The position numbers were made by a program, and so were the translations under genes. Below the pieces are notes generated by a model. That model did no database searches. It was not told the origin of the DNA and saw only the letters and a list, made by a program, of their open reading frames with translations. This document shows, piece after piece, positions 19,482-49,771 of a DNA stretch of 64,000 nt. Positions within the stretch are counted from its first letter, which is position 1. Every line of letters starts with the position of its first letter. The DNA comes from a virus. Location of the stretch: positions 1 through 64,000 of IMG/VR virus record IMGVR_UViG_3300025118_000006, one strand, 5' to 3'.

Positions 19482-21143
19482 GTGGTTGCGAACGAACACA
19501 GTGATATGGCCGCCAACATACTAGCTACGACAGCAGGTCGCAGGCGAATGTCTACGGCCTCTTTAATATACTTTGACACATACTATTGCGGCATGGCCTA
19601 CGCGGAACACAGGCAGAGGTGGTTGGACATTCTAGCGACCGCATATCGCAAGGGTCAGTCATCACGGGATGACCAGTCTTTACTGCTTCTGGCCCCTCGA
19701 AAGCATGGAAAGACTGAGCTTGCAGTTACATTCACGCTCTGGCTTATCTGCATGAACCGGAACATTCGTGTGCTTTGGATTGGTTCCAAAGCTGACTTGG
19801 CGAAGAAGCGTTTGGCGAGGTGTAAGGCCCTGCTAGAGAGCGCAAGAGTCCAGAATGACTGGTGCGGTGAGCCTGAAACCGGGTTCGGGCCTTGGCGTGG
19901 GGATTCTGGCGATGTTGAGTGGGACAAGAGCCGTATCCGAATCACGCGCAGCGCGGCACTTATTGACCCAACGATTGAAGCAGTCGGTATGCGTGGCGCA
20001 ATCACAGGTGGTCACTTCGATGTTATTATTCTGGATGACGTGGAGGACGAGAATTCGGTGCGCTCGGGTAGCGTGCGCGAGCACACGAGAGAGTGGTTCG
20101 AGGGAACGCTTACACCGATGTTAAATCAGGGTGGGCTCATGCTTTGCATTGGTACCCGAAAGCATTTCGACGATCTTTACGGTCGTTTGGATGAAAATCC
20201 CATGTGGCAAATCATCACCGACAAAGCCATTATGCAATGGCCTGATAAGTATGAGCCGACGTACGAGGAAATCGACGGCAAGGATATATTCACAGGCGTT
20301 TCGGTGGAGGGTGAGGCGAAGGTTTTGTGGCCTGAACAGCGACCGTTCGAGTACATGATTCGTCAGAGAATTAAGATGGGTTCGACGATTTTCGCTCGCG
20401 AGATGCAGAACGAGGTAGTGGATGATGAGACGGCCCAATTCAGGCTTGCTTGGCTGAAAGACGCTATGGCGAACGGGTCGAACTATAGTCTTTACGAGTT
20501 CCCGCCAAACGTGGACATCGTAGACATCGTGCAAGGCTGGGATCTCGCGCTAGTTACAGATCAAAGAAAGGCAGACGAGGGCGATAGGGACTTCACAGTA
20601 GGCGTGACGTGGGGTCGAGATGCGAAGGGAAATCGGTATCTTCTAGGAATGAGGCGGGAGCGAGGTATCACCCCAGGAACATTGCGGAACTCCATCATCA
20701 AAGAGCATGAACGCTTTGCTGGAAAGGTTCGAGCTATTGCTATTGAGAAGAACAGCTTTGGCGAACTCCACTTCCTCGGACTTCAGAAAACCACAGATTT
20801 ACCTCTAAAGGCACACATTACGGGGCGAAACAAAACCGACTCATGGGAAGGCGTACCGTCGATGGCGGCGCTTTTTGAAAACGGCAAGGTTCACTTCCCA
20901 AGCAAGACCCTGCGCGACAAGGAGATCATGAAGGACGTGATCGCGGAATTCCACGGCCTTGGCAGGGAGCGACACGACGACATCGTAATGTCTATGTGGA
21001 TAGCTGAAACCGTGCTACGCAAAGGTGGCTTCCAGTATCGTGCCGCGCAGGGAGACGACCTAATAGAGACGGATATTGTTGGCGCAGACGACTTCTCTCA
21101 TTTCGGTGGCGGGTTCGACGACCTACCCTTCCTTGACGATTGA
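19482..21143 (+). CDS. terL: terminase large subunit
   Basis: Walker A APRKHGKT, ITGGHFDVIILDDVED Walker B, IGTR, nuclease motifs GWDLA and HDDIV. Confidence 0.95.
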   Translation: MVANEHSDMAANILATTAGRRRMSTASLIYFDTYYCGMAYAEHRQRWLDILATAYRKGQSSRDDQSLLLLAPRKHGKTELAVTFTLWLICMNRNIRVLWIGSKADLAKKRLARCKALLESARVQNDWCGEPETGFGPWRGDSGDVEWDKSRIRITRSAALIDPTIEAVGMRGAITGGHFDVIILDDVEDENSVRSGSVREHTREWFEGTLTPMLNQGGLMLCIGTRKHFDDLYGRLDENPMWQIITDKAIMQWPDKYEPTYEEIDGKDIFTGVSVEGEAKVLWPEQRPFEYMIRQRIKMGSTIFAREMQNEVVDDETAQFRLAWLKDAMANGSNYSLYEFPPNVDIVDIVQGWDLALVTDQRKADEGDRDFTVGVTWGRDAKGNRYLLGMRRERGITPGTLRNSIIKEHERFAGKVRAIAIEKNSFGELHFLGLQKTTDLPLKAHITGRNKTDSWEGVPSMAALFENGKVHFPSKTLRDKEIMKDVIAEFHGLGRERHDDIVMSMWIAETVLRKGGFQYRAAQGDDLIETDIVGADDFSHFGGGFDDLPFLDD

Positions 21144-28883: not shown

Positions 28884-29293
28884 TGCGGTCGGTTGCGCTG
28901 ATGCTTGTTATGGTTCTAGTTGGGCAAACCTCTCTAAAAGCACAGGTTTGCACTCAGGCGGTCGGAATCGAGGCTGGCGTCGTAACACCGTGCGACGGTG
29001 TGCTTTGGAGCCCTACGCACTCAGTACAGGCTGTGGAGTGCGTGTCTGTAGATCTACCGAAGTGTGTTGCAGATGTGGATTACCATAGCGGTCGGTCTGC
29101 TACTTGTCGCCAGCACATCTCGAAACTGGAGACATTGTGCGACGGGAAGATCGGCCAACTAATCGACATTGCTGAAGATGCTGCGGGCCTGAAGCCGGAG
29201 CCGTGGTATAAGAACCCGTGGCTGATGTTGGGATTAGGGGTGGTCATAGGCGGGGCTTCGGTTTACTATATTGGTACGAACTACGGGAACTAA
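28880..29293 (+). CDS. secreted Cys-rich protein with C-terminal TM segment (spanin-like)
   Basis: Signal peptide, six Cys, PWYKNPWLMLGLGVVIGG tail. Confidence 0.5.
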   Translation: MMRSVALMLVMVLVGQTSLKAQVCTQAVGIEAGVVTPCDGVLWSPTHSVQAVECVSVDLPKCVADVDYHSGRSATCRQHISKLETLCDGKIGQLIDIAEDAAGLKPEPWYKNPWLMLGLGVVIGGASVYYIGTNYGN

Positions 29294-29295
29294 GC

Positions 29296-30912
29296 ATGGG
29301 TTGGTTAAAAAACATCGTTGCGCCAGACGTTATTGATCTGGAAAAAGCACGCAAAGCCGAGGTTGTGAACAAGTCAAAGGCTTGGAGCTTCGACCCAAAC
29401 GAGCTACGGACAGGTCTGTACGGCGGGCCTGAAGTAGCGGAGCACCAAGGTACGCTAGGGGTCAATTACAACACACTTATGGTTATGAGCCGGGTGCCCA
29501 TTATAGGTGCCATTATACAGCTTAGAACAAACCAGTTAGCTGAATTCGCGATGCCACAAATGTCGCGCTACGGCCTTGGATTTAAGATCGCGATGCGCGA
29601 CAAAAAAGCCAAGGCGACGACAGCAGCGGAAAATCAGATTAAGGAAATACAGACGCTCATACAGACATGTGGTGGCTACAAGTACGAACCCCAAGGTTTC
29701 GAGGGTTTCATGCGGAAGATTGTTCGAGATTCGCTCACCTATGATCAAGCGAACTTCGAGGTTGTTTACAACAAGGCCGGTAAGCCCGGAGCTTTCTGCG
29801 CTGTGGATGCGATGACAATCAGAAGAGCTATCCCAAAGGACGCCAAGCGCAAGGGCGGGGCAGCAGGTCTTGACAGCAACGATAAGGATGCTTTCGTTCA
29901 GGTTCTAGGCAATAAGCAGGTAGCTGAATTCGGAAGGCAGGAGATGGCTTGGGGGATTAGAAGACCCAGGACTTGGATGAGAGTAAACGGCTACGGCTAT
30001 CCAGAGTTGGAAGAGTCGATGAGGATCATAACAAACCTCTTGAATGCGGCTGAATACAACTCAAACAACTTCACTCATGGAGTTCACGCGAATTCGATTC
30101 TGACAGTGAAGTCTGGGATGTCGAAAGAGGTGTTTGCGGCTTTCAGGCGACAGTTTTACGCAATGGTTTCCGGGGTTCGCAATGCGAAGAGAACACCGAT
30201 TATCCAGCTTGACCCAGAGATGAAGGAAGAAATCTCAAACGTGTCAATGAGCCAATCGAACAAGGAAATGGAATACTCCAACTGGATGTCTTTCCTCCTT
30301 AAAGTCTTGTGTAGCGTGTACGGCCTGGACGCGGCAGAGCTAGGCTTCGTGTATGGCAACGAAGGGCAGGCGGCTTCACTCTCGCAAAAAGGGCCGGAGG
30401 AGCGAATTGTCGCGTCGAAGGAGCGTGGGTTGAGGCCGCTCGTTCGTGCCGTACAGGGATGGATGAATCAGTGGGTTGTTTACCCGGTAGACGAGGATTT
30501 TGAGATTCAATTCGTAGGTTTCGACGCTCACTCTGAATCAGAAAAGGTAGAGCTAGACACGAAGGCTGTAAAAGCGTTTAAAACCGTAAACGAAATCCGC
30601 GCAGAACACGACCTACCGCCACTCGAAGACAGCGTTGCTGACATGGTCTTAGATCCAACTTACGTGCAGTTTGCAACGGCGGGTGGAGAAGAAGAGGGCG
30701 GCGAGGAAGAAGGCGACTACGGGTCATATTTTGATGACTCTAAAGGCGACGAAGGCGAAGATGACGAGGAAAAGGGAGAAGAGGAAGTGCCCAGTGGCAA
30801 GCCGAAGAAGCCAGAGCCTCGAAAAAAAGAAGGCGGCAAAGGCGACTATAGTGACTCCTTTGAAGAGAAAACAGAAAAAGGGCTCCGAACGGTCACTATC
30901 GAGGTGACCTAG
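29296..30912 (+). CDS. portal protein
   Basis: RDSLTYDQ, VDAMTIR, GYGYPELE, DAAELG, SKERGLRPL and TVNEIR motifs of Twort/SPO1-type portals; acidic tail. Confidence 0.9.
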   Translation: MGWLKNIVAPDVIDLEKARKAEVVNKSKAWSFDPNELRTGLYGGPEVAEHQGTLGVNYNTLMVMSRVPIIGAIIQLRTNQLAEFAMPQMSRYGLGFKIAMRDKKAKATTAAENQIKEIQTLIQTCGGYKYEPQGFEGFMRKIVRDSLTYDQANFEVVYNKAGKPGAFCAVDAMTIRRAIPKDAKRKGGAAGLDSNDKDAFVQVLGNKQVAEFGRQEMAWGIRRPRTWMRVNGYGYPELEESMRIITNLLNAAEYNSNNFTHGVHANSILTVKSGMSKEVFAAFRRQFYAMVSGVRNAKRTPIIQLDPEMKEEISNVSMSQSNKEMEYSNWMSFLLKVLCSVYGLDAAELGFVYGNEGQAASLSQKGPEERIVASKERGLRPLVRAVQGWMNQWVVYPVDEDFEIQFVGFDAHSESEKVELDTKAVKAFKTVNEIRAEHDLPPLEDSVADMVLDPTYVQFATAGGEEEGGEEEGDYGSYFDDSKGDEGEDDEEKGEEEVPSGKPKKPEPRKKEGGKGDYSDSFEEKTEKGLRTVTIEVT

Positions 30913-31202
30913 TGAAAGTAATCGTAAAAGAATCCTTTTCAGGAGAGCTTGACAGTCGCCACGCGGTAGAAAAATTGGAACAGGCTATAAGCGAGTTCTC
31001 AGAACTTGCTGGGTTGGGGGTGGGTAATTCGTTCCAAAAGCACACTTGTGATGGCCACGAGGTTTTGGAAAAGGCCGTAAAGACACACGACCACCGAGTG
31101 GACGCTGTCGATGAGATGGTTGAGTTAATGCGTAAGGCTTATGAGAAGCGCATGAAGGCGATGGTCAAAGACATCGCGAAGCGTGTCAGCGATGGCGTCT
31201 AA
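30912..31202 (+). CDS. small head-module protein
   Basis: GAGGTG SD; coupled on both sides. Confidence 0.6.
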   Translation: MKVIVKESFSGELDSRHAVEKLEQAISEFSELAGLGVGNSFQKHTCDGHEVLEKAVKTHDHRVDAVDEMVELMRKAYEKRMKAMVKDIAKRVSDGV

Positions 31203-33682
31203 TGTCCTTACCACCAAAAATAGATGACATAGTATCCGCGCACCACGATGGGTTCCTCTACGATCTTTTTGGAGAAAGCCTCGGTCTTCCACTGGAAAGG
31301 GTCGCTGAGTTGCGAAGTATGGGGATACTTCCTGATATCCCGGTACCAATTTTAGCCCGTGCAGGGCTGGACGTATTGGCTGCTCGCCCGCTCATGATGG
31401 CCATGATGATTGGTGCCGCAAAGCAGTCGATGGAACCTGGGAGGCGAAAACAGGCAGACCGATGGCCCGCAAAGAAGTGGGCCAAGCAAATCATCAGAGA
31501 TGCCCCTTCGGTAAGTTCACCACCCCCGACTATCCCCTCGGTGACACCTATCGGTGGCGATACGCCTGACCTTCCACCACCACCTCCTCCTCCTCCGACC
31601 GGATCGGGAGGTGGTGGGCCTAAACCACCGGACCCACCGGACTTTTTGACCGACCTACAGAGGCACTCTTGGACGCAAGCAAGGGAGCGTGCAGGATCGT
31701 TTGTTCGAGGGCTAGGTAACATTGTCACAGCAGAAGCAGAAACAACGCTTGCGGAAGTGTGGAACGGAGAGCAAATAGAGCGCGAGACAGACGCAGATAA
31801 GCGTGCAGAGGTTGTCGATATCATTCGGGAAGAGACGGCGGCAGCCACCGCCAACAACACGAAGTGGAGATCTAGTACAGCGCAAAAGCTCGCATCAAAC
31901 CTTGCACACAGGACTGGTGACTGGAGTCGCAATTGGGAGCGGATAGCGCGAACGGAGCTTCAGGGTGCGTACAATGAGGGCAGTGTGTTGGAGGCCATCG
32001 AATGGGACGGCCCAGACGCGCTCATAGCCAGAATACCTGAGCCAAGCGCGTGCGCTGATTGCCGACGTGTACACATGACACGAGATGGCAGGCCACGGGT
32101 TTTCAAGGCGAGCGACCTCATAAACAATGGTACAAATGTAGGCCGAAAACGCGCACAGTGGCAGGCTACTATCTGGCCCGTTCACCCGAATTGTAGATGC
32201 GACACGCAACACATCCCCGAGGGAATGGAGTTCGATGATGAGTGGGGGCTTGTATACAAGGCGTATTCATTCTCGCAGTTAGCGAACCTTGTAAAGGCCA
32301 AGGGCTATCTATACAAGGCAGGGCCTTTTATCGGTCCACGCGGTGGCAAGTGGGCTGACGCGAAGCATACGATAGCCTGGAAGGAAAAACAGACAACAAG
32401 GACTAAGGGGCATGAAATAGCAAGACTCCCGCCAGAGGTTCAATCAGAAATAGCAGGGGCGGTCACTTTTGTGACCCGCCTTTTTCCAGAATTGCAAGAT
32501 GTCCGCGTGGTGATTGCAGATCATGATCTTGGCCATTCTCACGCCACTAAGGACAGTAAAAAAATCAAGCTCAACCCCACAACTTGGCTGGACGTAAATA
32601 AGCTAAAACAGCAACGGGATGAGGCGGCAGGGCTGGTGGTAGATGGGTCGATCAAGGGCATTATCGTACACGAGTTAGGCCATATACTGGCTGGCCGAAT
32701 ACTCAACGCGCTTGGATCGAAAAAGTACAACGAAATAGCGCAAAAGCACTTAGGCGTACCGCAAGATGGCTTAGATCCGTGGGGAGAGCCTGTATTCACC
32801 ACGCTGTCTAACTCTGACATGCCAAGCGCATACGCTATGGATAACAGGAGCGAGTACGAGGCAGAAGCCTTTTCAGCAGCGGTATTTGGAAAAGCAGAAA
32901 CGAACCCCAAGTGGGCGGCAGGGGCTGTAAACAAGTCTAAAGCGTATTGGGCAGACATGCTCCACGCTTATCGAAATCTAAGCAAGTCATTAGCAAAATC
33001 CGGTCCCTACATCGGCCCTCGCGGTGGTAAGTGGGCTGACGCCAAGCATACAATTGCGTGGAAGGAAAAGTCTAAGAGGCAGCTTAAAAGGGAGGCTTCG
33101 GAGAAGAGAAAGAAGGCGCGAGCGAGCGCAGAAGGGCCTGCGGTAGAGGCGTATAACAAGGCCGTTAAAGACCACAACGAACACGATGACGCTGGGTATG
33201 ACGCAAACGCTTCGGACATGGTCGATGTCGCGTACGGCGGGTACGCACCGGCAAAAATAGACGCCATGAAGGTTTGGGCCAAAAAGGTGGGGCTAGAGGT
33301 TGGCGAAACTGATTTTTCAGGTGGAGCATCGTATGGCAGCGCGTACATACAATTGAAAGTTCCAGGCATCGGCGCGGTGGGAGGATCAGGACGGTTGGAC
33401 CGGGCCGTTGTTGTGAGAATGTCGGATCACGGAAACATGGCGCGAGTTGGCGGGCGGCTGCAAACTGACACAAACATAGCGCCTGATTTTGGTTGGACTT
33501 TCATGAAAGGGATAGGGCACGCGATTGGTATCTTGCGCGAACGCTTTCAAGAGCACCTCGACAACGCAGACGACGACGATTATTTCGACCAAGACCCAGA
33601 TGGCGATGCAGAGCGCAAGCGAATGGAAGAGGCTATGCCACTTCTTGACAAGCTCGGAAAGCTGTACCGAAAACCCGGTTAA
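31202..33682 (+). CDS. MuF (SPP1 gp7-like) head protein fused to a zincin domain and a second cargo domain
   Basis: WERIARTE, C..C, PVHPNCRC (MuF); HELGH...S.YA....EYEAEAF (zincin); two GPxIGPRGGKWADAKHTIAWKE tags. Confidence 0.85.
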   Translation: MSLPPKIDDIVSAHHDGFLYDLFGESLGLPLERVAELRSMGILPDIPVPILARAGLDVLAARPLMMAMMIGAAKQSMEPGRRKQADRWPAKKWAKQIIRDAPSVSSPPPTIPSVTPIGGDTPDLPPPPPPPPTGSGGGGPKPPDPPDFLTDLQRHSWTQARERAGSFVRGLGNIVTAEAETTLAEVWNGEQIERETDADKRAEVVDIIREETAAATANNTKWRSSTAQKLASNLAHRTGDWSRNWERIARTELQGAYNEGSVLEAIEWDGPDALIARIPEPSACADCRRVHMTRDGRPRVFKASDLINNGTNVGRKRAQWQATIWPVHPNCRCDTQHIPEGMEFDDEWGLVYKAYSFSQLANLVKAKGYLYKAGPFIGPRGGKWADAKHTIAWKEKQTTRTKGHEIARLPPEVQSEIAGAVTFVTRLFPELQDVRVVIADHDLGHSHATKDSKKIKLNPTTWLDVNKLKQQRDEAAGLVVDGSIKGIIVHELGHILAGRILNALGSKKYNEIAQKHLGVPQDGLDPWGEPVFTTLSNSDMPSAYAMDNRSEYEAEAFSAAVFGKAETNPKWAAGAVNKSKAYWADMLHAYRNLSKSLAKSGPYIGPRGGKWADAKHTIAWKEKSKRQLKREASEKRKKARASAEGPAVEAYNKAVKDHNEHDDAGYDANASDMVDVAYGGYAPAKIDAMKVWAKKVGLEVGETDFSGGASYGSAYIQLKVPGIGAVGGSGRLDRAVVVRMSDHGNMARVGGRLQTDTNIAPDFGWTFMKGIGHAIGILRERFQEHLDNADDDDYFDQDPDGDAERKRMEEAMPLLDKLGKLYRKPG

Positions 33683-33746
33683 AAACACACTTGTTGAACT
33701 GAAAGCCACTCCATAGTAATTTGAACTGAACAACTCGGAGCCCACA

Positions 33747-34496
33747 ATGAAGACTTTTCAAAGCCTGAACGACATTTACAAGGCTGCAAAGAAGCCAAAG
33801 AAGGAAGAGAAGGAACCTGAAGAAGAGGTGTCCGAGGGGCAAATGTCCTTGTTTGACGGCCTAAAAAAGGCCGCAGACGAAGAAGAGGACGAGGACGAGA
33901 AGCGCGACAAGAAGCTGCAACAACGGCTCGACGAAGAGGCGGCTGGTGGCGAGGAAGAGTATAAGCGGATGAAAGAGGAAGAGGCTGAGAAGTCTTTCTC
34001 GGGCCTCGAAGGAATGGACATTGTCAAAAACATGGCCAAGGTCCAGGCCGAAATGAAGAGCGGGAAGTCCGCGAAAGAAGCTGTTCAGGCCGCATACCCG
34101 GATTACACCGAAGAGCAGGTAGAGATCTTTGTGAAGGACATGAAGAAAGGCTACGGCGTCTATCGTGCCAAGAAGGAAAAGAAGATGATTAAGTCAGACA
34201 ATGAGAACACACGGCTTGTGGTGAGCCTCACAAAAGGCGCATTGGAAGAGAGCGTTTCGATCATGCGAGGTGGTCCAAGTCGAGCAGACGTGGCTACAGC
34301 GTTGGCTTCATCGATTAAGAAGGGTTTCAACATCCCTGCGGAGTTCCCAGAGATGATGTTAGACGATCTCGACACATGCTCTAACGTAGCTCGCAAGAGC
34401 TTTGCTAATGCGTGCATGATGACCGCATCGGGATACCCAGAATTGCAGGTAGCTGGCGACATGGTCGGGTACCTTGAAGAGCTTACAGAAGGATAA
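33747..34496 (+). CDS. highly charged head-module protein (internal/scaffold-like)
   Basis: GGAG SD; many hydrophobic-x-K-[ASG] sites. Confidence 0.6.
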   Translation: MKTFQSLNDIYKAAKKPKKEEKEPEEEVSEGQMSLFDGLKKAADEEEDEDEKRDKKLQQRLDEEAAGGEEEYKRMKEEEAEKSFSGLEGMDIVKNMAKVQAEMKSGKSAKEAVQAAYPDYTEEQVEIFVKDMKKGYGVYRAKKEKKMIKSDNENTRLVVSLTKGALEESVSIMRGGPSRADVATALASSIKKGFNIPAEFPEMMLDDLDTCSNVARKSFANACMMTASGYPELQVAGDMVGYLEELTEG

Positions 34497-34499
34497 ATT

Positions 34500-37400
34500 A
34501 TGGCAGATTTTACGTCGCTAATTCATGGTGGGCTCAACGATCTCCGCAAGGGGAAGGGTCCGTTTATCGGACCCCGTGGCGGCAAGTGGGCCGATGCCAA
34601 GCATACAATTGCGTGGAAAGAGGACGGTGGGAAGTCGGGTGGTAAAAAGTTCAAGCCGGACCCTGAGTATAAGTTAAGCTCGGAGGGGCATAACAAAAAA
34701 GACTACAACCGTGGCCTGAAGGAGGGGATGTCTAGCACGACAATCCCGCAAACGTCCGAAAAAGATAAGAAAGACACGAGCTATATGGCTGGCCTGAAAC
34801 AGGGCTTAATGGTGCAGATTAAGGCAAAAGACCACGCGAAAGCTCGCTATAAAATGCTGCGAGAAAGAGCAGACCGAGGTGAAAAGGGTGGGATTCCGAA
34901 GGGGTCTAGTGTCACCGAGAAAGTCTACATCGAGGCAAACACCGACGCCATCATGGAGAACATCCTGTCCGGCATGGAGCCGGACGGAAAGGGTGGCTAC
35001 AAGGGTGGCTATAGAAAAGCCTCCACCACCTTCTCGGACCTCGCGAAAGGAAAGCCCACAAAGTATCTCAAGCGTAAACGCGGCAAGGGTGGTCGCTACG
35101 AGTACACCTACGCCGAAGACGGTAAACCTAAGAAGAAGAAGGGCCGCTTTGGGAACCTTCTAAGCACGTTGATGGGTGTCGTTAAGAAGCATCCATACGC
35201 GCTGATGGGTGAGTTTAAGTCGATGGTACGCGACTTCGATTTGGATGAGCTAATTGAGATGCGCTCCGAGATCAAAGACGCACTCGAAGCGAAACCTGAG
35301 AAGAAGGCTCCGGGCGAGAAGAAGGCTCCCAAGAAAGAAACCGCCGAAAAGAAAAAGCCAGCCCCAAAGAAAGGCCCGTCGGAGAAAGATATTCTTCGCC
35401 AGATGCTCAAGGCCATCGACAAGATGATCGCCAAGAAGCAGGAGGCGAACTCGAAGCTAAGTCTGAGGAGCTTGGTCGCGGGCTATCACAAGGGCGACAC
35501 TGAAGCGATTAAAGAGCTATACAAGAGAGCGCAGGAATTGCTTCCTGGCATTCGCATCTCAGACGCTCTTAACGTGGTCGCAACGGCGGCTGAAAACTAC
35601 GGGAAATTGCCGAAAGAATTTGTGGACGAGATGATTCGGGAGAACCGGGTCAAGGGCAAGAAGCCACCCGCAGCCGCTACAGAAGAGGCTCCGAAGCCCG
35701 CTGCCAAATACGAACGCTCAAAGTGGGCTGATTTTAAGAGCCAAATGGCCTCGTCTGACGGCGGCGCAAAATTAAACAGGCAATACGCGGAATTCGCGAA
35801 AAACGCACTGAAAGCCACGTCAAAGAAAGACCTAAAGCACGCCATCGAACAGGCGAAGGCAGCGAGTAGAAAGGATGACACGGTGGTCACTAGGACTGGT
35901 GTCGGGTATTCGACAGGAATCAAAGGCAAATTAAAGCGATTGCAAGCCCACTTGGAAAACAAGCTCAAGCTAGTGTCCAAGTATGGCGAGAGCGGGTTGG
36001 CCAAAGAAAGCGAAAAAAAGCAGAAAGAAAAGAAGCCAGTCACTCCGCAAGTTCCCGCGATGGAGGGCATGGCACCACTTGGAATAGCTCCGAAGCCCGC
36101 TGGCGAGGACATTGGCGTAGCCAAAGAGAGAGGCGACAACCGATACAAAAGCTCTGGCACCACCGACAAGGCCACGAATCACGATGAGATTATCGCCGCT
36201 GGCGGGGAATACCTCGGTCAAGGTGTGTACACGGATAAAGGTCCACCCAAGGCAAAGCGTGGGAAAAAGGGCAAGGTTGAGATCGTCCACCGTGGAGAAA
36301 AGAAACTGACCGATGGGACCATCTACGGCAAGGGTGACTGGGCCATCACTAAGCAACTTGAGTCGAAAAGGGTTACAGTGACAAACATAGCTACCGGGCA
36401 CTCCATCGGTGGCGAGATGTCCGGGCCACAGGCTTCGTACTTGATGGACCAAGTCATGGAATTGGAAGCGAGTGGAAAGCTGGACGGGTTCGACCCAGAC
36501 AATTTGTCCTCATCGTCATCAAAACCAGCGTTTGATGCTCTCAAGAAAGTCGCAGACGAAGTGCGCGAGGAAGGTAACTCTGGTATGCCTATCTGGAGCC
36601 GACGAAACAAGGCGAAACGAGAGGCTAACAGGCGGGCGAAGGTCGAGAAGCTCACCGAAGCAGCGTCCGTGAAAGGCGTCATCAGCCGCCCACTAGCCCT
36701 GGCTGATGTGAAAAGAAAAGAGCACAAGAGCGGAGAGGCCGCTCACAAGCGGGCAAGAAATTTTCAATCTACAGACGAATTCCGACTAAATCTTCAGCAG
36801 TCCATAGTAGACCGTTTCGAGGGCGAGCAGTACATGATTTCAACGGACGGCCACAGGATGGCGTTGATACCAGTATCGAATGACGTGAAACAAGGGGTGG
36901 GCTACGGCGAGGGTTCGCGAGATGCTCTGGGTGGAGGACGTGAATTTCCAAACTATAAGCAGGTCATACCGGATGACCGGAAGGCAAATGACACCCACGA
37001 CTTCGACGCCGAAACACTGCTGGCGCACGCGAAGCTGGGGGCATCGACGCCGGGTGTCATGGCGGGTTACGTTCATTTATACGCAGACGGTGGTGCCCAC
37101 AAAGCCCAAGCCAGTCATTCGGCTGTGATATCGCCTGAAGTTGACGAGAGGGAAAAGGGCATGGCGGGGATCGCTCTTGCGGAGTCCAAGCGCCCTTCCA
37201 CTGCGGGCGAGCCCACCGGAGGCGACAGCAAGAGCATCTCGGTGAACGCAAGGTATTTGGTAGACGCCCTTGAGGGCGCAAAAGGCTCAGTGTCCGTGTA
37301 TTACAAGGACAAAGGTAGCCAGATGATCATTGAAAGAGCCGATGGCGAGATACACGTCATCATGCCTGTGCGTGATGCTATGCCGAAGGACCACCCACAC

Positions 37401-39818
37401 AGGACGGAAGAGTGGGAGGTAAGCCCAGCCAGCAAGTCCTTCACCAACTTCTCCGATCTTTTCAAAGCGAAGCCCACCAAGTACAAGACTCGCAAGCGCG
37501 GAAAGGACGGAAGGTGGGTTTACACGTATGCTGAGAAGAAGGCACCGAAATCGCGGATGGGCGCGTTCTTGAACAAGATTGTCGGCTTTTTCTCTGAGCA
37601 CCACGACAAAGAGGATAACCTCATAGCGGCAGAAAAGAAGCTCATCTACGATCTGGAAACGCCACAGCTTGAGATGCTTAGGGATGCGATAAAGGCCGAA
37701 CTGGCCGCGATGGAAAAGAAGCCTGTTCCGGGGGCAAAGAAAAAGAAGCCCTCAAAGAAACGCTCGGGAGCACCCGTAACAGCAGAAAAGAAGGGGCCGT
37801 CACGCAAGCAAATTCTTCAGCAACTTCTTGCGAAGATCGATGGAGAGTTGGCTGCTCGCGCAATCGTGGGCTCCGCACCAACGGAGTCCGAAGACAACTT
37901 CGAGACGATGCCTGATGAGGAGTCCATCGGGCACCGTAGAGCCCGAGAAGTAATGGCCATGACCGTGAGCGATGCTTCACGGCTTGCGAGCGAAGAGCCA
38001 GGGACTCCGTTACGAGCCCCACACCACACAACATCGACACAAGGTTTACTCGGTGAACTTGACCAAGCGCAGGGGGGCATCCTATTTCTCGACCAGATCG
38101 AGGACTTCTCCCTTGAGTCGATCAAAAAGCTCGCAGTTGCGATGCGAGACAACCCCTATGTGATGATCGGGTACAGAACCACCGGCACCGGCACCGAAAC
38201 CGACAAGGTGAAGCTGAAGGCCCGCCTCGAAGCCCTGGGTGTTGATGTCAGCATGTGGGATGCCAATGAGGGCGTATCCGAAGACAACTTCGAGACGATT
38301 CAAGAGCACTATAGCGCGAAGAAGCAGCTTCTCAGAGACGTGGACGTTGTTCGCGCCTCGAAACTTAATGAGCTTAACGTGCCGTCACACTCGGAAATTA
38401 TGGACCACGCGGTCAATCATTCCCATTATAGGCACGTTAAGCCAGCCTTTAAGAGTGCCAAGGAGAAAATTGACCGCCTAAATGAAGCTCTTGCGGCGCT
38501 AGGTGTAAGAGAGTGGCGGGGTTACAAAATAAAGCCGTTCGCCTCTAGCGACTTAGATGACTTAATCGCGATGAGGGATCAGATACGGCGCGATGAAGAA
38601 GCCCTAAGCGCGAGGGTGGGCTTGGTTTCGGTAGACCTTCCGTCGAATTCAATGATTGGCCGTGAGCATCCCGAGGTAGGGCCACAGATCAGGGAGGAAA
38701 GGGAGAAGTTAGAGGAGGTCAAATCGGCTATTGCAGCTTACAACAATGAGGGCACATCCGAAGACAACTTCGAGACGATGCCTGAAGCAACCACGCCCGT
38801 AAGCCAAGCGCATGAAGAGAATCGCCTGGACGCTGAGTTGCGAAGCAACAACACCAGCGAGCAGAAGGCCAACGAGAACATCTTCACGTATGCCGAAAAT
38901 GCCTTGGACCCGGACTCGCTTAAATTCGTCATCGAGTGGTCAGAAAGTGGTGCTGTAGAAGACGGCCAAGAGTTCGCATCAGTCAATGAGCTTAACGCCA
39001 AATTGCAGGAAATATCCGACCACCATAGGGAGCGGTACGGTCTTGGTGGTGGCTACTTTAAGACAAAGGTCTACGCTGAACTTGAGGGCAATCGGTTCTT
39101 TGGCAACCGTCTGGACGTTACATCGGGCGGCGAAGACGTAAATCTGGTAGATCACATGACTGCGATTTCTCATTATTACCAGTCCGACAGGGGTCGAGAA
39201 TATTGGTCGGCGGTTCAGGCTAACCAACGTGACAGGGGTGAAGAGACAGGCGAGCAGGCGCACGAGCGGGCGCAGTCGTATAAGAACATGGTTCAGCTAG
39301 TGCGGGACCATCAAAGAATTGCCAGTGGCTACGACATCGCAGGGGGCGACCCTCCTCAAGTAAAGTCTAAGAGAGAGTTAGACAAACTATCCGAAACAAG
39401 AAGAGCACAGGCCGATGCTTGGGAACAAGCAGAGCGAGAGGCCGAACAAAGAGCCGCCCAGGATGCTCACGCGGCTCGAACAGCAGGCTGGGAAGCCCCG
39501 CAGAGCAGGCGAGAGGTAACCAAGCGCGTTAAGCGAGCTATCGTTCAGGCGACTGGTTTGCCAGCGAAGGACGTTAGCGTTCGTGGTTCAACAGGGACCG
39601 CCTGGGGGTGGGTACGGATAAGCGGAAAAACGCAAGCAGCGCAAGCGGCTATTGATGCGTTTCAGGGAAGGACTTATTGGGGCAACATTTCTCCAGATGA
39701 CTGGGACAGGGCAACGCTAGAGTTTGAAATTGGTGCGGGCATTCACACTCCGGGCTCTATCTCGCGAGGCGGCTTCACTAACTTCTCAGACCTGCTCAAA
39801 TCAATAGGCCGTGCCTAA
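34500..39818 (+). CDS. large polyvalent protein / polyprotein with beta-clamp-like, ComM-like and LPD25-like domains
   Basis: STDGHRMA, FPNYKQVIP, NARYLVDAL, VIMPVR; PLRAPHH, ILFLDQ; IEWSES..GGYFKTK; repeated tags. Confidence 0.8.
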   Translation: MADFTSLIHGGLNDLRKGKGPFIGPRGGKWADAKHTIAWKEDGGKSGGKKFKPDPEYKLSSEGHNKKDYNRGLKEGMSSTTIPQTSEKDKKDTSYMAGLKQGLMVQIKAKDHAKARYKMLRERADRGEKGGIPKGSSVTEKVYIEANTDAIMENILSGMEPDGKGGYKGGYRKASTTFSDLAKGKPTKYLKRKRGKGGRYEYTYAEDGKPKKKKGRFGNLLSTLMGVVKKHPYALMGEFKSMVRDFDLDELIEMRSEIKDALEAKPEKKAPGEKKAPKKETAEKKKPAPKKGPSEKDILRQMLKAIDKMIAKKQEANSKLSLRSLVAGYHKGDTEAIKELYKRAQELLPGIRISDALNVVATAAENYGKLPKEFVDEMIRENRVKGKKPPAAATEEAPKPAAKYERSKWADFKSQMASSDGGAKLNRQYAEFAKNALKATSKKDLKHAIEQAKAASRKDDTVVTRTGVGYSTGIKGKLKRLQAHLENKLKLVSKYGESGLAKESEKKQKEKKPVTPQVPAMEGMAPLGIAPKPAGEDIGVAKERGDNRYKSSGTTDKATNHDEIIAAGGEYLGQGVYTDKGPPKAKRGKKGKVEIVHRGEKKLTDGTIYGKGDWAITKQLESKRVTVTNIATGHSIGGEMSGPQASYLMDQVMELEASGKLDGFDPDNLSSSSSKPAFDALKKVADEVREEGNSGMPIWSRRNKAKREANRRAKVEKLTEAASVKGVISRPLALADVKRKEHKSGEAAHKRARNFQSTDEFRLNLQQSIVDRFEGEQYMISTDGHRMALIPVSNDVKQGVGYGEGSRDALGGGREFPNYKQVIPDDRKANDTHDFDAETLLAHAKLGASTPGVMAGYVHLYADGGAHKAQASHSAVISPEVDEREKGMAGIALAESKRPSTAGEPTGGDSKSISVNARYLVDALEGAKGSVSVYYKDKGSQMIIERADGEIHVIMPVRDAMPKDHPHRTEEWEVSPASKSFTNFSDLFKAKPTKYKTRKRGKDGRWVYTYAEKKAPKSRMGAFLNKIVGFFSEHHDKEDNLIAAEKKLIYDLETPQLEMLRDAIKAELAAMEKKPVPGAKKKKPSKKRSGAPVTAEKKGPSRKQILQQLLAKIDGELAARAIVGSAPTESEDNFETMPDEESIGHRRAREVMAMTVSDASRLASEEPGTPLRAPHHTTSTQGLLGELDQAQGGILFLDQIEDFSLESIKKLAVAMRDNPYVMIGYRTTGTGTETDKVKLKARLEALGVDVSMWDANEGVSEDNFETIQEHYSAKKQLLRDVDVVRASKLNELNVPSHSEIMDHAVNHSHYRHVKPAFKSAKEKIDRLNEALAALGVREWRGYKIKPFASSDLDDLIAMRDQIRRDEEALSARVGLVSVDLPSNSMIGREHPEVGPQIREEREKLEEVKSAIAAYNNEGTSEDNFETMPEATTPVSQAHEENRLDAELRSNNTSEQKANENIFTYAENALDPDSLKFVIEWSESGAVEDGQEFASVNELNAKLQEISDHHRERYGLGGGYFKTKVYAELEGNRFFGNRLDVTSGGEDVNLVDHMTAISHYYQSDRGREYWSAVQANQRDRGEETGEQAHERAQSYKNMVQLVRDHQRIASGYDIAGGDPPQVKSKRELDKLSETRRAQADAWEQAEREAEQRAAQDAHAARTAGWEAPQSRREVTKRVKRAIVQATGLPAKDVSVRGSTGTAWGWVRISGKTQAAQAAIDAFQGRTYWGNISPDDWDRATLEFEIGAGIHTPGSISRGGFTNFSDLLKSIGRA
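37887..38785 (+). repeat. three copies of TCCGAAGACAACTTCGAGACGAT (37887, 38277, 38757)
   Basis: 23-nt identity in all three copies; encodes SEDNFET; spacing 390 and 480 bp. Confidence 0.95.
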
Positions 39819-40582: not shown

Positions 40583-41341
40583 ATGTACGAGAATAATATC
40601 GACGTATTCAGCGCATGGACCCCGTTCGACGTTGTCGAAAAGGGTGAGTCCGAAAGCAGTCCTAGTGGTCGTATCTCCGGTGTTGTTTCAACTGAGACGG
40701 TAGACCAACAGGGCGAGCAGGTTGTACAGAAGGGCCTCGACTGGGACTATTTCCTGAGCAAGGGTTGGTTCAACTGGGAGCACGCGGCTGGGCCTGAAAA
40801 TGTTCTAGGGTACCCAGACAAGGTTGAACCCGTAGAAATCAACGGAACCCACGCAACTCGCGTAGAGGGCCGTCTCTTGATGAACAAGGCTAAGGCCAAA
40901 GAAATTTACAATACGGCGGTAAGTCTACAGAAGTCGGAATCAAACCGACGGCTTGGATTTTCCATCGAGGGTCAGGTGTTAGAGCGCGAAGGGAAGACGA
41001 TCAAAAAAGCTCGTATTCTCAATGTTGCGATAACTGCTCACCCGATTCATCCAGACGCACGTTTGGAGATCCTAGCGCAATCACTCCTCGCCCGCGCCGC
41101 CTCTGTCGGCTATCAAACCCCAGCCGGTGAGGGCGGCTCTATAGCACCTTTGGTCGCACAATCTCTGGAAGGCTCAGTTTCAACTGCCACCTTCGGGGCT
41201 CGTGGTCTTGAAGCGTATTTGAAGAGCTTGAAAGAGGAAGACCTGATTGCGCTGCGTATTCTAAAGAGCTTTCCAACGCTCAATTTTGGAGACGCACATT
41301 CCATAGTAACAGACTTTTTACGAAAAAAGGGAGTCCTCTAA
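40583..41341 (+). CDS. prohead protease
   Basis: ISGVVSTE.VD.QGE, FNWEH, LGFSIEG, NVAIT..P.HP motifs. Confidence 0.88.
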   Translation: MYENNIDVFSAWTPFDVVEKGESESSPSGRISGVVSTETVDQQGEQVVQKGLDWDYFLSKGWFNWEHAAGPENVLGYPDKVEPVEINGTHATRVEGRLLMNKAKAKEIYNTAVSLQKSESNRRLGFSIEGQVLEREGKTIKKARILNVAITAHPIHPDARLEILAQSLLARAASVGYQTPAGEGGSIAPLVAQSLEGSVSTATFGARGLEAYLKSLKEEDLIALRILKSFPTLNFGDAHSIVTDFLRKKGVL

Positions 41342-42077: not shown

Positions 42078-43508
42078 ATGCTTTCAATGCCCCAAGCAAA
42101 CGACCTAGTGTCGGTGAAGGACTTGCATGAGCTTAACAAAGCTCTCCGCAAGGCCACAGCGGCTGGCTACCAGACACCAGCCAGCCAAACACCAGACGGC
42201 AACACCACCTTTAGCCCACTGGTGCCTCAATCTATTGAGGCGACTCTCGCTTCAAAAACTTTCACTATGGACGAACTCGTTCTGTGGAAAATGCTGCCTA
42301 AACGCGCAGTTTCTCAAACCGTTCATGAGTACACCGTTGTAAATGAGCATGGTGGAGATATGGACCCATTCTTCGTGGAAGGTGGTGGTGGATATGAATC
42401 CCTCAGCACTTACGAAAGAAAGAGTCTGCGAATCAAGTACCTCATGGAAAAGCGAGAGGTTACTGACGTGGCCTCTATGGTCGGAATCATCGGCAATAAC
42501 GCAAACGCTATTGCTGAAGCCACCGAGCGTGGAACCATCTCTCTTTTGAGCAAGTTGGAGAAGCAGCTTTTTATCGCTGACTCCAGCATCAACCCACTTG
42601 CATTCGATGGTATCGATAAGCAGATGGCTGATGGCGCTCCTAACAATGTCAGCAACCTTGCTGGTGATGACCTTACTCCAATGAAGTTGCAGGAAATCCT
42701 GTCTGGCTCCTATGCCGAGCCAAACTTCGGTAAGCCATCCGTAGTTCTCGTTGAGCCTCGCGTACACGCGCAGCTTATTGAGCAGGCTACTGCTTATGGT
42801 CGCCACGACATGATGGGCACGGGACAGGGAACAATGACCTTCGGTCGTTCCGACCTCCGCATCTCGGTGCCTTACGGTACTGGTTCCGTACCTGTAGTTG
42901 GTTGCCCGTTCTTGTACCCAGAAGGTGCACCGAACGCAGCCGCTGTTGGTACTGCACCGACAGCACCTTCTGCTTTCAACACCCCTACCGTTGCAACTCA
43001 CGCTTCTTCCCTGTTCCTCTCCGGCGATGCCGGAACTTACTACTACCACGCGGTAGCAGTAGGACAGGGCGGTAAGTCAGCACCGATTGTGTCGGCTGCT
43101 ATAACAGTAGCTGCTGGTGAGCGAGTATCCGTTGGTATTAACGATGACGCCCTTGCTACACCAGTAAGCGGCTCCGAGAACACTGCAAGTATCTTGTACT
43201 ACAAGATTTATCGCAGCACGACCGGCGTCCACGCTGATGCAAAGTGGGCCTTCAACGTCAAGAAAGCGGATACCAGTAGTGACACCGCATTCAACGATGA
43301 CAACCTTCACCGCCCTGGCATGTCCAAGGCGTATGCTCTTCAGATGACTCCAGATGTAATCGAGTGGGTAAAACTTCTCGACTTCATCCGTCGTCCTCTT
43401 GCAGAGGTGAAGACCACTAAACCATTCTTGCTCATGCTCTTTGGTGCGCTAAACATCAAAGTTCCGACCAAGAACTGGCTTATCCGTAACATCAAGACTA
43501 ATCCTTGA
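42078..43508 (+). CDS. major capsid protein
   Basis: KA...GY.T N-arm, PL..QSIE.TL, TVHEY, FDG..K; AAGGAGG SD; position in the head module. Confidence 0.9.
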   Translation: MLSMPQANDLVSVKDLHELNKALRKATAAGYQTPASQTPDGNTTFSPLVPQSIEATLASKTFTMDELVLWKMLPKRAVSQTVHEYTVVNEHGGDMDPFFVEGGGGYESLSTYERKSLRIKYLMEKREVTDVASMVGIIGNNANAIAEATERGTISLLSKLEKQLFIADSSINPLAFDGIDKQMADGAPNNVSNLAGDDLTPMKLQEILSGSYAEPNFGKPSVVLVEPRVHAQLIEQATAYGRHDMMGTGQGTMTFGRSDLRISVPYGTGSVPVVGCPFLYPEGAPNAAAVGTAPTAPSAFNTPTVATHASSLFLSGDAGTYYYHAVAVGQGGKSAPIVSAAITVAAGERVSVGINDDALATPVSGSENTASILYYKIYRSTTGVHADAKWAFNVKKADTSSDTAFNDDNLHRPGMSKAYALQMTPDVIEWVKLLDFIRRPLAEVKTTKPFLLMLFGALNIKVPTKNWLIRNIKTNP

Positions 43509-47755: not shown

Positions 47756-49771
47756 ATGTCAGCGTCCACATTAACCTTCGGTGGTTTCCAAACACGGCGG
47801 CCCGGTACATACGCGCTGGTAGATGCCTCTGCTTTAGGCGGCAAGCAACTAACAGTAGGTCGATTGGGAATCGTTGGTGACTTCCCGTTCCTGCAACAAA
47901 ACACAGCGAAAGAGGTCACTTCACCTCTGGCGATGTCACAGCTTGACTCGACGAACGAGGATCTACAAGTCATTACGCGACTTGCGTTCACTCCATCAAA
48001 CGATGAGCGGGTTCCGGGTGGAGCTACAGCGGTAGTCCTTATGAACGCGGCTGTCACGACTCAGGCCAGCAAGGCAGTGTCTTCGTCGGGTGCTGAAGAC
48101 GTACTTCTTTTAAAAAGTCGAATCTGGGGAGCCTCTGGGAACCGTATGCGCTACGCAATCGCAGCAGGGACCAACGAGGGGAAAAAGCTCACCATTGAAC
48201 ACAATGGAACATCTGAGGTTCACGACAATGTGACCTGGGGAACCATCTTACAGGTGAACTACAGCGGTAGCTCGTTTGCGACTGCGACCATGTACGTGGA
48301 CAACTCGTCGGCTGGAAACGGGTTGGTGATCAACGCTACGCGCTCGCTTGGAACCTCCACTGGATCGCACGCCTTGGCTACCCCAGCCGACGGAAAGGTG
48401 ACCATCACATCAAACGCCATCGGTGCAGCCGACGCCAACATAACTGTTGTTGTCTCGGGAACAGCCTTGGTAGATGGTGTGGCCACAACAGGCCAAACCG
48501 AAACAATCGTGTTCAATAACACGAGCGGAACCTCGAAAGAGGGAACTAAGCACTTTACGCACATCACAACAATTGCGAACACGCACACGAACATTGCAAA
48601 CGCTGCGACTGCACAGTTCGACGTTTTCACAGCGAAAGACAGTGGTTCGACTAACCAGAGCCATAACTTCGCGAAGATTTCAGACGCAGTTGAGGAACTG
48701 ACTAGCTACACAGATTTCGCTGCGACATCCGTATCTCCAAGAGTCTCAAGCTTGAAGATAAGTGAGCTTGATGACTTCGCATCGTCCGGGTCACCAACTT
48801 CCATCAAGGCGTCTCTCCAAGATTTGACTGCGGAACTTCACGCAGTCAACGCTGCTTTCAATAGCAGTGCGCTCGTGTCATCGACTGTTTCCCTTGAGGG
48901 AGCGCGCAAGAATGTCGCGAATGTCACAGCAACCTATCTTATTGGTGGGACTGCGACAGCACCTACGACTTCAGGCTACCAGACAGCCTTGGAAAACCTA
49001 GAAAGCCAGAACGCGCAAGTGCTCGCGGTTCTTTCCGATAACGCGACTGTTCACGGTTACACAGTCACGCACTGCAAGAAGATGGCGGGCCTCGGTAAAT
49101 CAGAGCGTAACGCCTGGGTAGGTGCAGCCGCTTCCGAGGCGTTGTCAGCACTGAAGACTCGCGCAAAGGCAATAAACTCTCGACACGTCGCTTTGGTCGG
49201 CCAAGAGATATATATCGCCAACGCGAAAGGGACTTTAGCCTACTACGCGCCAATGTATTTAGCATTGCAGCTTGCAGCTATGCAGTGCGGGACACCAGTT
49301 GCTACGCCTCTCACACGTAAGCTGCCAGCACTGAGTGGGTTTCGGCAAGCAGCATCATGGTCGCCTGATAAAAACGCAGAGGAACTTCTCTCTAACGGTA
49401 TTTGCTTTCTCGTGGATACCGATTTAACGCCACGAGTCGAGCGTTCTATTACGACCTACCTCACGGACGACAACGCTATCTTCTCTGAAGTTTCAGCTAA
49501 TGAGTCTGTAAACACGTCGGTACGTGACTTGCGTGCAGAATTGGACACTTTCATCGGTTCCGCGTCGGTGGCAGGTACAACTGCGCTAATCAAAGAGTTG
49601 GCCGTTTCGAGGCTTAAAAAACAGGTTGAGCTTGGCTATATCAAGGCATTTAGAAATGTCTCGATTGACGACCTTGGCGATACTTTCCGTATCAACTACG
49701 AAGTAGCTGCCACCGAGCCAATCAACTTCATCCTCATCGTCGCACACGTTGTGCGAATTGCGGCTGCATAA
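47756..49771 (+). CDS. tail sheath protein
   Basis: FGG....PG.Y, WG..GN, PLT.K, ITTY, PINFI C-terminus. Confidence 0.9.
   Translation: MSASTLTFGGFQTRRPGTYALVDASALGGKQLTVGRLGIVGDFPFLQQNTAKEVTSPLAMSQLDSTNEDLQVITRLAFTPSNDERVPGGATAVVLMNAAVTTQASKAVSSSGAEDVLLLKSRIWGASGNRMRYAIAAGTNEGKKLTIEHNGTSEVHDNVTWGTILQVNYSGSSFATATMYVDNSSAGNGLVINATRSLGTSTGSHALATPADGKVTITSNAIGAADANITVVVSGTALVDGVATTGQTETIVFNNTSGTSKEGTKHFTHITTIANTHTNIANAATAQFDVFTAKDSGSTNQSHNFAKISDAVEELTSYTDFAATSVSPRVSSLKISELDDFASSGSPTSIKASLQDLTAELHAVNAAFNSSALVSSTVSLEGARKNVANVTATYLIGGTATAPTTSGYQTALENLESQNAQVLAVLSDNATVHGYTVTHCKKMAGLGKSERNAWVGAAASEALSALKTRAKAINSRHVALVGQEIYIANAKGTLAYYAPMYLALQLAAMQCGTPVATPLTRKLPALSGFRQAASWSPDKNAEELLSNGICFLVDTDLTPRVERSITTYLTDDNAIFSEVSANESVNTSVRDLRAELDTFIGSASVAGTTALIKELAVSRLKKQVELGYIKAFRNVSIDDLGDTFRINYEVAATEPINFILIVAHVVRIAAA

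Follow-up and report, generated by a model that had tools for sequence, protein, structure and literature searches.

We detected a 22-residue peptide, hereafter the tag, that occurs three times in two genes of an uncultured contractile-tailed phage, and that probably serves as an undescribed signal for separating and handling capsid-carried enzymes, which are presumably loaded and cut. Our favored explanation, to which we give about an even chance, treats the tag as the header of a junction signal organizing capsid-borne enzymes in one clade of these phages. The full unit would consist of hydrophobic-x-[KR]-[GAS], then G-P-[FY]-I-G-P-[RK]-G-G-K-W-A-D-x-x-H-[TK]-I-P-W, often with a basic stretch after it. 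It would open each module of polyvalent proteins encoded beside the portal and MuF genes, and would also form the N-terminus of stand-alone cargo proteins.

The window, by which we mean the whole 64,000-nucleotide stretch of DNA analyzed, belongs to a 78.5-kb piece of the phage, with the terminase at 19482 and the tail sheath at 47756. The two tag-bearing genes, A and B, are located between the portal and the prohead protease:

29218..30912, + strand: portal protein (Pfam Phage_portal, E 1.2e-16)
31202..33682, + strand: gene A, 826 aa, MuF-like with two tags and two modules
33747..34496, + strand: 249-aa acidic protein between genes A and B, without a tag, its N-terminus the pre-motif-like KTFQSLNDIYKAAK
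34500..39818, + strand: gene B, 1772-aa polyvalent protein with a tag near its N-terminus and FTNFSDLLKSIGRA as its C-terminal end
40583..41341, + strand: prohead serine protease of the S78/HK97 type (phrog_1028, E 1e-45; homologues with PF04586)
42078..43508, + strand: major capsid protein, SU10_MCP-like (phrog_752; homologues with PF17236)

Phage-type polyvalent proteins, as set out in the main text of Iyer, Burroughs, Anand, de Souza and Aravind (2017, J Bacteriol, PMC5512222), are large chains of unrelated effector domains that are encoded among virion genes, are often fused to MuF, and are predicted to be packaged, processed and injected; the domains described there are globular, and processing by zincin-like peptidases is proposed. 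Genes A and B are polyvalent proteins of this kind: each has at least two unrelated domains (several of the matches are weak) and lies among portal-terminase virion genes, and tag bearers carry InPase, ART-PolyVal, LPD1/LPD25, DarA_C, ddrB-ParB, zeta toxin and RelA/SpoT domains. They depart from that account in their short conserved header and junction peptide, of which we found no mention in its main text.

Gene A runs from an N-terminal region through a Pro-rich linker, a MuF-like head domain (about aa 140-350), a tag, an HExxH module and a second tag to a C-terminal module. Residues 226-346 match PHROG head morphogenesis or minor head protein families (E 1e-6 to 1e-5), and Pfam Phage_Mu_F gave no match at E ≤ 0.01; the gene adjoins the portal region and aligns with MuF-type N-termini of relatives, both of which are compatible with MuF. 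The HELGH of the HExxH module is at 32669-32683, and its match to Peptidase_M48 is weak. In gene B, modules without assignment lie between the tag and a sliding-clamp-like module (about aa 815-959; phrog_947, E 4e-8), beyond which are an AAA+/Mg-chelatase fragment (about aa 1157-1227) and an LPD25-like module (aa 1472-1561; E 1.4e-5, 26.1 bits against a cut-off of 27). A second kind of header, PTKY...G.GGR.EYTYAE, is found twice in gene B:

35055..35117, + strand: second kind of header, copy 1, after junction DLAKGK
37473..37535, + strand: second kind of header, copy 2, after junction DLFKAK

Translation bears out the sequence-only reading that the window holds three near-identical copies of the tag: copies 1 and 3 translate to GPFIGPRGGKWADAKHTIAWKE, and copy 2 differs only by Y at residue 3:

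32321..32386, + strand: tag copy 1, residues 374-395 of gene A (MuF-like), ahead of the zincin-like HExxH module
33002..33067, + strand: tag copy 2, the Y variant, residues 601-622 of gene A, followed by a strongly basic stretch and a 200-aa module without assignment
34557..34622, + strand: tag copy 3, residues 20-41 of gene B, preceded by a 19-residue N-terminal pre-sequence

The three window copies differ pairwise at 11, 14 and 12 of 66 bases. The only difference outside third codon positions is at the second base of the F/Y codon. That the peptide is fixed except for F/Y while these copies differ almost only synonymously agrees with the earlier claim of selection on the protein. In a set of 38 copies drawn from 21 contigs, the third position of Gly, Pro and Ala codons is saturated, with 0.70-0.77 of pairs differing there, versus 0.00 for the first and second bases of invariant residues. 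This invariance is partly one of ascertainment, since the core residues were already specified in the DNA pattern and the profile is biased toward close matches. The flanks of the three copies do not align, so these are not a recent DNA duplication, and three identical 22-mers by chance are impossible. Beyond the tag itself, the regions downstream of it show no significant mutual similarity. No further copies turned up when the window was scanned in six frames with up to 9 mismatches tolerated, or in the rest of the whole 78.5-kb record.

A search with one 34-column profile against 1.84 billion protein clusters matched 779 representative proteins or clusters at E ≤ 0.001 (434 at E ≤ 1e-10). 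In 187 of the matched proteins we counted 395 tags, with at least two in 159 proteins; the usual load is two to five per protein, one domain apart, at a median tag-tag distance of 273 aa. Most tags are internal (345 of 392 scored); 50 of 187 proteins have their first tag no more than 30 aa from the N-terminus, and none of the 395 tags lies within 15 aa of a C-terminus. InPase is the cargo in 18 of 59 proteins, and the next cargo types are zeta toxin, topoisomerase IB, ART-PolyVal, LPD1, GNAT, phosphatases, SAM lyase and GGDEF. The idea of a portable tag placed before unrelated domains therefore holds, by profile matches and the domains listed downstream of them, in hundreds of proteins. So does the linkage of homologous tags to head modules, on which the sequence-only reading had staked its suggestion of a packaging, DNA-binding or ejection signal: it was found in every locus with enough flank. 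Genomic contexts were drawn from IMG/VR contigs and five contigs of metagenome-assembled genomes (MAGs). In complete relatives, all tags fall within ORFs beside portal and MuF, and on the other contigs and in the five MAG matches, portal, MuF, terminase, protease or capsid genes are close by; the MAG matches come from different phyla, and each has phage head genes nearby.

Searches of described sequences returned little. We obtained no match by tblastn in cultured phages and plasmids (50,697 phage records and 72,556 plasmids), nothing on the tag in Pfam (E up to 10), NCBIfam or PHROGs, and no usable match in the ESM Atlas; the best that a PDB sequence search gave was a resemblance at chance level (E 0.16) to HPKGG repeats in beta-trefoil lectins, and a literature search for the peptide string found nothing relevant. 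Among these phage genomes, the tag is the longest identical stretch in common, the head proteins being only 22-43% identical. Close relatives exchange or insert modules precisely at tag borders: protein P0008 is 88% identical to gene A in the MuF part but carries another module between those two tags, and one relative has about 190 nt inserted, starting at the 3' end of a tag.

Directly before the tag is a short motif, hydrophobic-x-[KR]-[GAS], whose chance expectation alone is about once per 300 residues and which we detected upstream of 70% of N-terminal and 70% of internal tags versus 3% of random positions. As a sequence pattern, this upholds the earlier proposal of a candidate cleavage site before each tag. 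Similar junctions occur in the capsid protein and the protease:

32309..32320, + strand: junction LYKA (hydrophobic-x-K-A), candidate protease site before copy 1
32990..33001, + strand: junction LAKS, candidate site before copy 2
34542..34556, + strand: junction LRKGK, candidate site before copy 3
41084-41098, + strand: protease LLARA, preceding a GYQTPA...PLVAQSLE segment, by alignment
42141-42155, + strand: capsid protein ALRKA, preceding GYQTPA...PLVPQSIE, by alignment

Clade-wide, ALRK[AS] in the capsid protein and L-x-[KR]-[AS] in the protease each lie just ahead of a common GYQTP...PLVPQS.E segment, and the segments of the two proteins co-vary across the clade. Because the same four residues precede a segment common to capsid protein and protease, the junction is likely the cut site of the S78 protease, whose gene is in the same head module; the motif held in common with the capsid protein precursor is a pattern in sequence only. 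More distant relatives have KAL.AG at the capsid N-terminus, which is only loosely like the junctions, and in the part of the literature covered we found no cleavage data for the related Herelleviridae capsid proteins. We also considered a ribosomal-skipping (2A-like) or self-cleaving peptide and found no supporting evidence; the conserved part follows G-P and does not precede it.

The tag is predicted to be unstructured. An AlphaFold model of the 34-residue tag alignment has no secondary structure (pLDDT 61), and in a tag-topoisomerase protein the tag is below pLDDT 50 and the enzyme domain above 90. Given this predicted disorder, the tag looks like a short linear motif in need of a reader.

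From the observed motif, its conservation and position, its link to the head module and the module swapping at its borders, we infer a cut, a loading step and a reader. The proteins would be incorporated into the procapsid, in the case of gene A via its MuF-like domain, and the S78 prohead protease would cleave the four-residue junction. The disordered header would then stay as the new N-terminus of each freed module, where a conserved component would read it for retention or exit, with the capsid interior, the portal and DNA as candidates. Several points count against this explanation. Besides the shortness of the junction motif and its loose counterpart in more distant relatives, cutting alone would be insufficient to explain the header, because 22 invariant residues far exceed what a protease site needs; and with cutting only after loading, a single signal per polyprotein would suffice for packaging.

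The arrangement can be compared with known head signals. The capsid-targeting sequence of T4 (IPI-III, Alt) is about 10 residues long, strictly N-terminal, and is removed by the prohead protease gp21 at L/I-x-E and discarded. Like it, the tag is a short portable peptide that opens presumably capsid-carried proteins beside a protease site, here a candidate one, common to the capsid protein. Unlike it, the conserved 22 residues follow the presumed cut, would remain on the product and recur inside polyproteins; the two have no sequence likeness, and most tags are internal, as counted above. Among the ejection proteins of phiKZ and SPN3US, many head-internal proteins are cut at a common [AGS]-x-E motif by one protease, with propeptides removed before DNA packaging (PMC10052503, PMC7411985). 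These giant phages thus resemble the present case in having one short motif and one protease for many head-internal proteins, with cleavage here being presumptive. Their proteins differ in having no conserved header after the cut, and they are not domain-shuffled polyproteins with a repeated tag.

Four other explanations were weighed. The header and the basic stretch may together anchor modules to double-stranded DNA without sequence preference, so that they ride and exit with the incoming genome and act on or near it, a reading that we consider unlikely. Mean net charge over the 25 residues that follow the tag is +1.8 versus +0.47 in random 25-mers (p 5e-12), reaching +7 after copy 2, but a charge of at least +4 follows only 30% of tags. 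With P-R-G-G-K and two Trp, the tag, unstructured alone, is like DNA-binding linear motifs, although its core G-P-[RK]-G-G-K-W has at most one RGG and no G-R-P, where AT-hooks have R-G-R-P and RGG motifs have repeated RGG. Several cargoes act on DNA (topoisomerase IB, ParB-like and clamp-like modules), whereas many others have no DNA role (zeta toxin, RelA/SpoT, InPase, GGDEF). The tag is conserved far better than any head protein, which suits a universal ligand such as DNA more than a phage partner evolving along with it, and which such a ligand would account for.

We likewise judge it unlikely that the header, or an amphipathic pre-sequence with it, is an address label binding to the capsid interior, scaffold or portal so as to load each module, with cutting secondary or absent. 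Such a label would act in the manner of the capsid-targeting sequence of T4, the C-terminal tail of HK97 protease and encapsulin cargo-loading peptides. These last are short terminal peptides docking on the inner face of an HK97-fold shell, and the pre-motif (e.g. ..GSLSKG in a relative) bears no more than a resemblance to them. Stand-alone proteins without a MuF domain open with the unit (50/187) and need a route into the head, head linkage is strict, the pre-sequence is retained equally at N-terminal and internal copies, and several proteins, including those of genes A and B and P0003, end in a pre-motif-like peptide without a tag. Against this, MuF-fused proteins, already anchored, still carry tags between modules, and no head protein has an equally conserved patch. 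We rejected a pre-motif tail ending in C-terminal Gly, which is not significantly enriched (22/187, p 0.11), and a likeness of the extreme C-terminus of the protease to the pre-motif, which is lost in relatives.

A signal acting after injection appears very unlikely: the header would recruit or evade a conserved host factor (chaperone, protease adaptor or nucleoid) so that modules crossing the tail unfolded then refold, survive or localize. Conservation above that of all phage proteins fits a conserved non-phage partner, and each module has one disordered header, but the five genome matches are the MAGs of different phyla noted above with head genes beside the tags, PDB and family searches recognized no known host-binding motif, and the tight tie to a junction common to capsid protein and protease points to head assembly. 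Least probable is a recombination joint or plain linker, a tolerated spacer without a signaling role whose shared sequence lets phages shuffle modules: in close relatives a module replacement and an insertion do start or stop exactly at tag borders, but the peptide is invariant despite saturation at synonymous sites, so there is little homology at the DNA level and it is the protein that is constrained, and a linker has no need of at least 12 near-invariant residues, Trp, Asp and His among them.

Polyvalent proteins are regarded as the first weapons that a phage delivers. The header is a search key to them, since one profile retrieves hundreds of cargo proteins, including many of unknown function, and marks their module borders. 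A defined header with a candidate cut site makes the question of the header reader testable, and the junction and the segment common to capsid protein and protease point to a cleavage specificity for this protease family. Should the header prove sufficient, chosen proteins could be loaded into phage capsids by this route. More tentatively, and as a rather doubtful extension of the junction-signal explanation, junction and header may be a self-sufficient, transplantable code by which any protein could be loaded in the capsid, released by the head protease and delivered with the DNA, each phage clade having its own header and matching reader. If so, phage head assembly would include a general layer that has so far gone unnamed, similar in kind to the cargo-loading peptides of encapsulins.

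Three copies of a 22-residue tag were detected on an IMG/VR viral contig, in two genes that lie between those for the portal and the prohead protease, in the following gene order.

19482, terminase
29218-30912, portal
between the portal and the acidic 249-aa protein, a small ORF and then gene A
31202-33682 (+), gene A, 826-aa MuF-like protein
32321-32386 (+), tag copy 1, residues 374-395 of the 826-aa ORF
33002-33067 (+), tag copy 2 (Y variant), residues 601-622 of the 826-aa ORF
33747-34496, acidic 249-aa protein, between genes A and B
34500-39818 (+), gene B, 1772-aa polyvalent protein
34557-34622 (+), tag copy 3, residues 20-41 of the 1772-aa ORF
40583-41341, prohead protease, 3' of gene B, grouping with Peptidase_S78
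between the prohead protease and the major capsid protein, a scaffold-like protein
42078-43508, major capsid protein, grouping with SU10_MCP-like proteins
after the major capsid protein, adaptor-like and tail sheath genes

The sequence-only reading had described one peptide, under selection and varying solely between F and Y, placed before unrelated domains. Translation agreed: copies 1 and 3 are the same 22-mer and copy 2 has Y instead of F. The copies differ pairwise at 11-14 of 66 bases, all at third codon positions except in the F/Y codon, which bears out selection on the peptide. Their flanks do not align in the window, and the regions 3' of the three tags are mutually unrelated in sequence comparison, and the observation is confirmed; no further copies were found in the window or the 78.5-kb record. 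Among 38 tag copies, third positions of four-fold codons differed in 0.70-0.77 of pairs and first and second positions of invariant residues in none, an invariance that partly reflects ascertainment, since the core was set by the search pattern; the three window copies, as an unbiased sample, behaved alike. When this phage is compared with two complete relatives, the proteins they have in common show 22-43% identity and their identical runs span 4-11 residues, against runs of 11-18 residues in the tag.

Genes A and B both fit the class of phage-type polyvalent proteins (Iyer et al. 2017, PMC5512222). The MuF-like head domain of gene A (PHROG matches at aa 226-346) is followed after tag 1 by an HExxH module (HELGH) with a weak M48 match, and after tag 2 by a module without family assignment. 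Gene B carries sliding-clamp-like, AAA+ fragment and LPD25-like modules, the first of which (~aa 780-960, 36840-37380) shows similarity to the C-terminal portion of the sliding clamp of DNA polymerase III (phrog_947, E 4e-8; TIGR00663, E 6e-5; STDGHRMAL motif) and would be an unusual capsid cargo. Gene B also has three copies of another short motif, SEDNFET(M/I) (37887-37907, 38277-38297, 38757-38777), a single copy of which is present in P0106, an unrelated protein with tags, and the gene B stretch at 36045-36083, PQVPAMEGMAPLG, is nearly unchanged in P0003, which is otherwise unrelated apart from its tags. Gene A ends in ..LGKLYRKPG and gene B in ..FSDLLKSIGRA. The acidic protein had no tag and no family match; its start, KTFQSLNDIYKAAK, and its end, ..GYLEELTEG, both resemble the motif that precedes the tags.

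A degenerate DNA pattern for the tag core recovered 17 stretches on 13 viral contigs, often with several tags per ORF, and a word-based protein search recovered 54 proteins. Scored against 1.84 billion representative proteins, a 34-column tag profile (A2) matched 779 at E<=0.001 and 434 at E<=1e-10. We counted 395 tags in 187 retrieved proteins, 159 of which carry two to five at a median distance of 273 residues; in 50 proteins no more than 30 residues separate the first tag from the protein start, and none lies within 15 residues of a protein end. The consensus is L-x-K-[GA]-G-P-[FY]-I-G-P-[RK]-G-G-K-W-A-D-[AP]-x-H-[TK]-I-P-W-K-E, with three invariant glycines and Pro, Asp, His and Trp at 92-98%. 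A weak likeness of the core to the G-K-[FY]-[IV]-H-P-K-G-G repeats of beta-trefoil galactose lectins (E 0.16) is probably chance. The tag was not found in 50,697 cultured-phage records or 72,556 plasmids, and among 185,579 species genomes it occurred on only five contigs, all from MAGs, four of them with portal or MuF genes in the flanking sequence retrieved. Among cultured phages the nearest are Thermus phages and SPO1-like phages, whose capsid proteins are no more than 30% identical to that of this phage. Many tag-bearing proteins (P0014, P0112, P0116, P0146, P0163 and others) also have in common an N-terminal helical region, MRL.LEATPEEL.EKG..L.., which is neither MuF nor tag.

By Pfam, the families found in tag-bearing proteins belong to the polyvalent set. 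InPase was present in 18 of 59 tag-bearing proteins, alongside zeta toxin, topoisomerase IB, AAA_33, DUF5661, GNAT, DUF3560, DUF6582, ART-PolyVal, LPD1, phosphatases, SAM lyase, GGDEF and Rho_N. For domains whose positions are available (for example zeta toxin, RelA/SpoT, topoisomerase IB, DarA_C and ART), the tag lies 20-100 residues before the domain. The sequence-only reading would have been refuted by homologous tags without a link to head modules, and this was not the case: one complete relative (G001) has seven tags in three adjoining ORFs just upstream of its portal, MuF, protease and capsid genes, another (G003) has one tag after MuF, and on other contigs the tagged ORF adjoins terminase, portal, MuF, protease or capsid genes. 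Modules also appear exchanged at tag borders. The related protein P0008 matches gene A at ~88% identity over the MuF part and is identical from tag 2 on, but the module that separates the two tags is unrelated, and P0008 also has a 41-residue insert flanked by two junction motifs. In a different pair of relatives, a ~190-nt insertion starting at the 3' end of a tag breaks an alignment with DNA identity of 0.92-0.97.

A candidate cleavage site had been proposed before each tag, and the pattern hydrophobic(-4/-5)-x-[KR](-2/-3)-[GAS](-1) precedes 70% of tags, versus 3% of random positions in the same proteins. This junction is equally frequent at N-terminal and internal tags, which argues that it is part of the unit and not merely the end of an upstream domain. 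Residues 22-26 of the capsid protein are a near-invariant ALRK[AS] followed by GYQTPA...SPLVPQSIE, and the prohead protease has L-x-[KR]-[AS] before the same segment; in this phage the capsid N-terminal region (42141-42239) and the C-terminal part of the protease (41084-41170) have in common L-x-[KR]-A, then GYQTPA...PLV.QS.E. Across ~75 homologues the segment changes together in both proteins, which in a more distant subclade switch jointly to ..NDPG...GFPLRTESLE. The protease may be a mimic of the capsid N-arm; alternatively, the two proteins may be cut at the same site. Head proteins of three classes thus have a single four-residue pattern before a conserved element, the signature expected of a prohead protease site, and from these sequences we infer that the junction is such a site, where the S78 protease would most likely cut as a first step. 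A second header occupies the tag's slot after the same junction twice in gene B (35055-35117 and 37473-37535, after DLAKGK and DLFKAK), with the pattern PTKY...G.GGR.EYTYAE, also written PTKY(L/K)K.RKRGK.GR..YTYAE; a related HKYIRRVPKPGGGYRYYY motif fills this slot in 29 of the 187 tag-bearing proteins.

This class of proteins is already known, as are capsid-targeting peptides and the processing of internal head proteins by proteases. For the header, the junction and the second variant, Pfam, NCBIfam and PDB have no entry; the main text of the paper on polyvalent proteins (PMC5512222) does not mention them, and they were not found in the literature searched. AlphaFold gave the tag alignment no secondary structure (pLDDT 61), and in a tag-topoisomerase IB protein modelled with 11 homologues the enzyme domain reached pLDDT ~90 versus <50 for residues 1-248, which include both tags. 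In these models the tag looks like a short linear motif, which would need a partner. The header may serve to load modules or retain them on a head component, to anchor them to DNA, or to bind a host partner after injection. The 25 residues after the tag are more basic than background, with a mean net charge of +1.8 versus +0.47 (p 5e-12), but only 30% reach +4. The portability claimed for the tag holds, as it opens unrelated modules of many proteins. We conclude that the peptide is a portable header under strong constraint, placed at the start of modules in the capsid-associated polyvalent proteins of a single clade of uncultured myoviruses.
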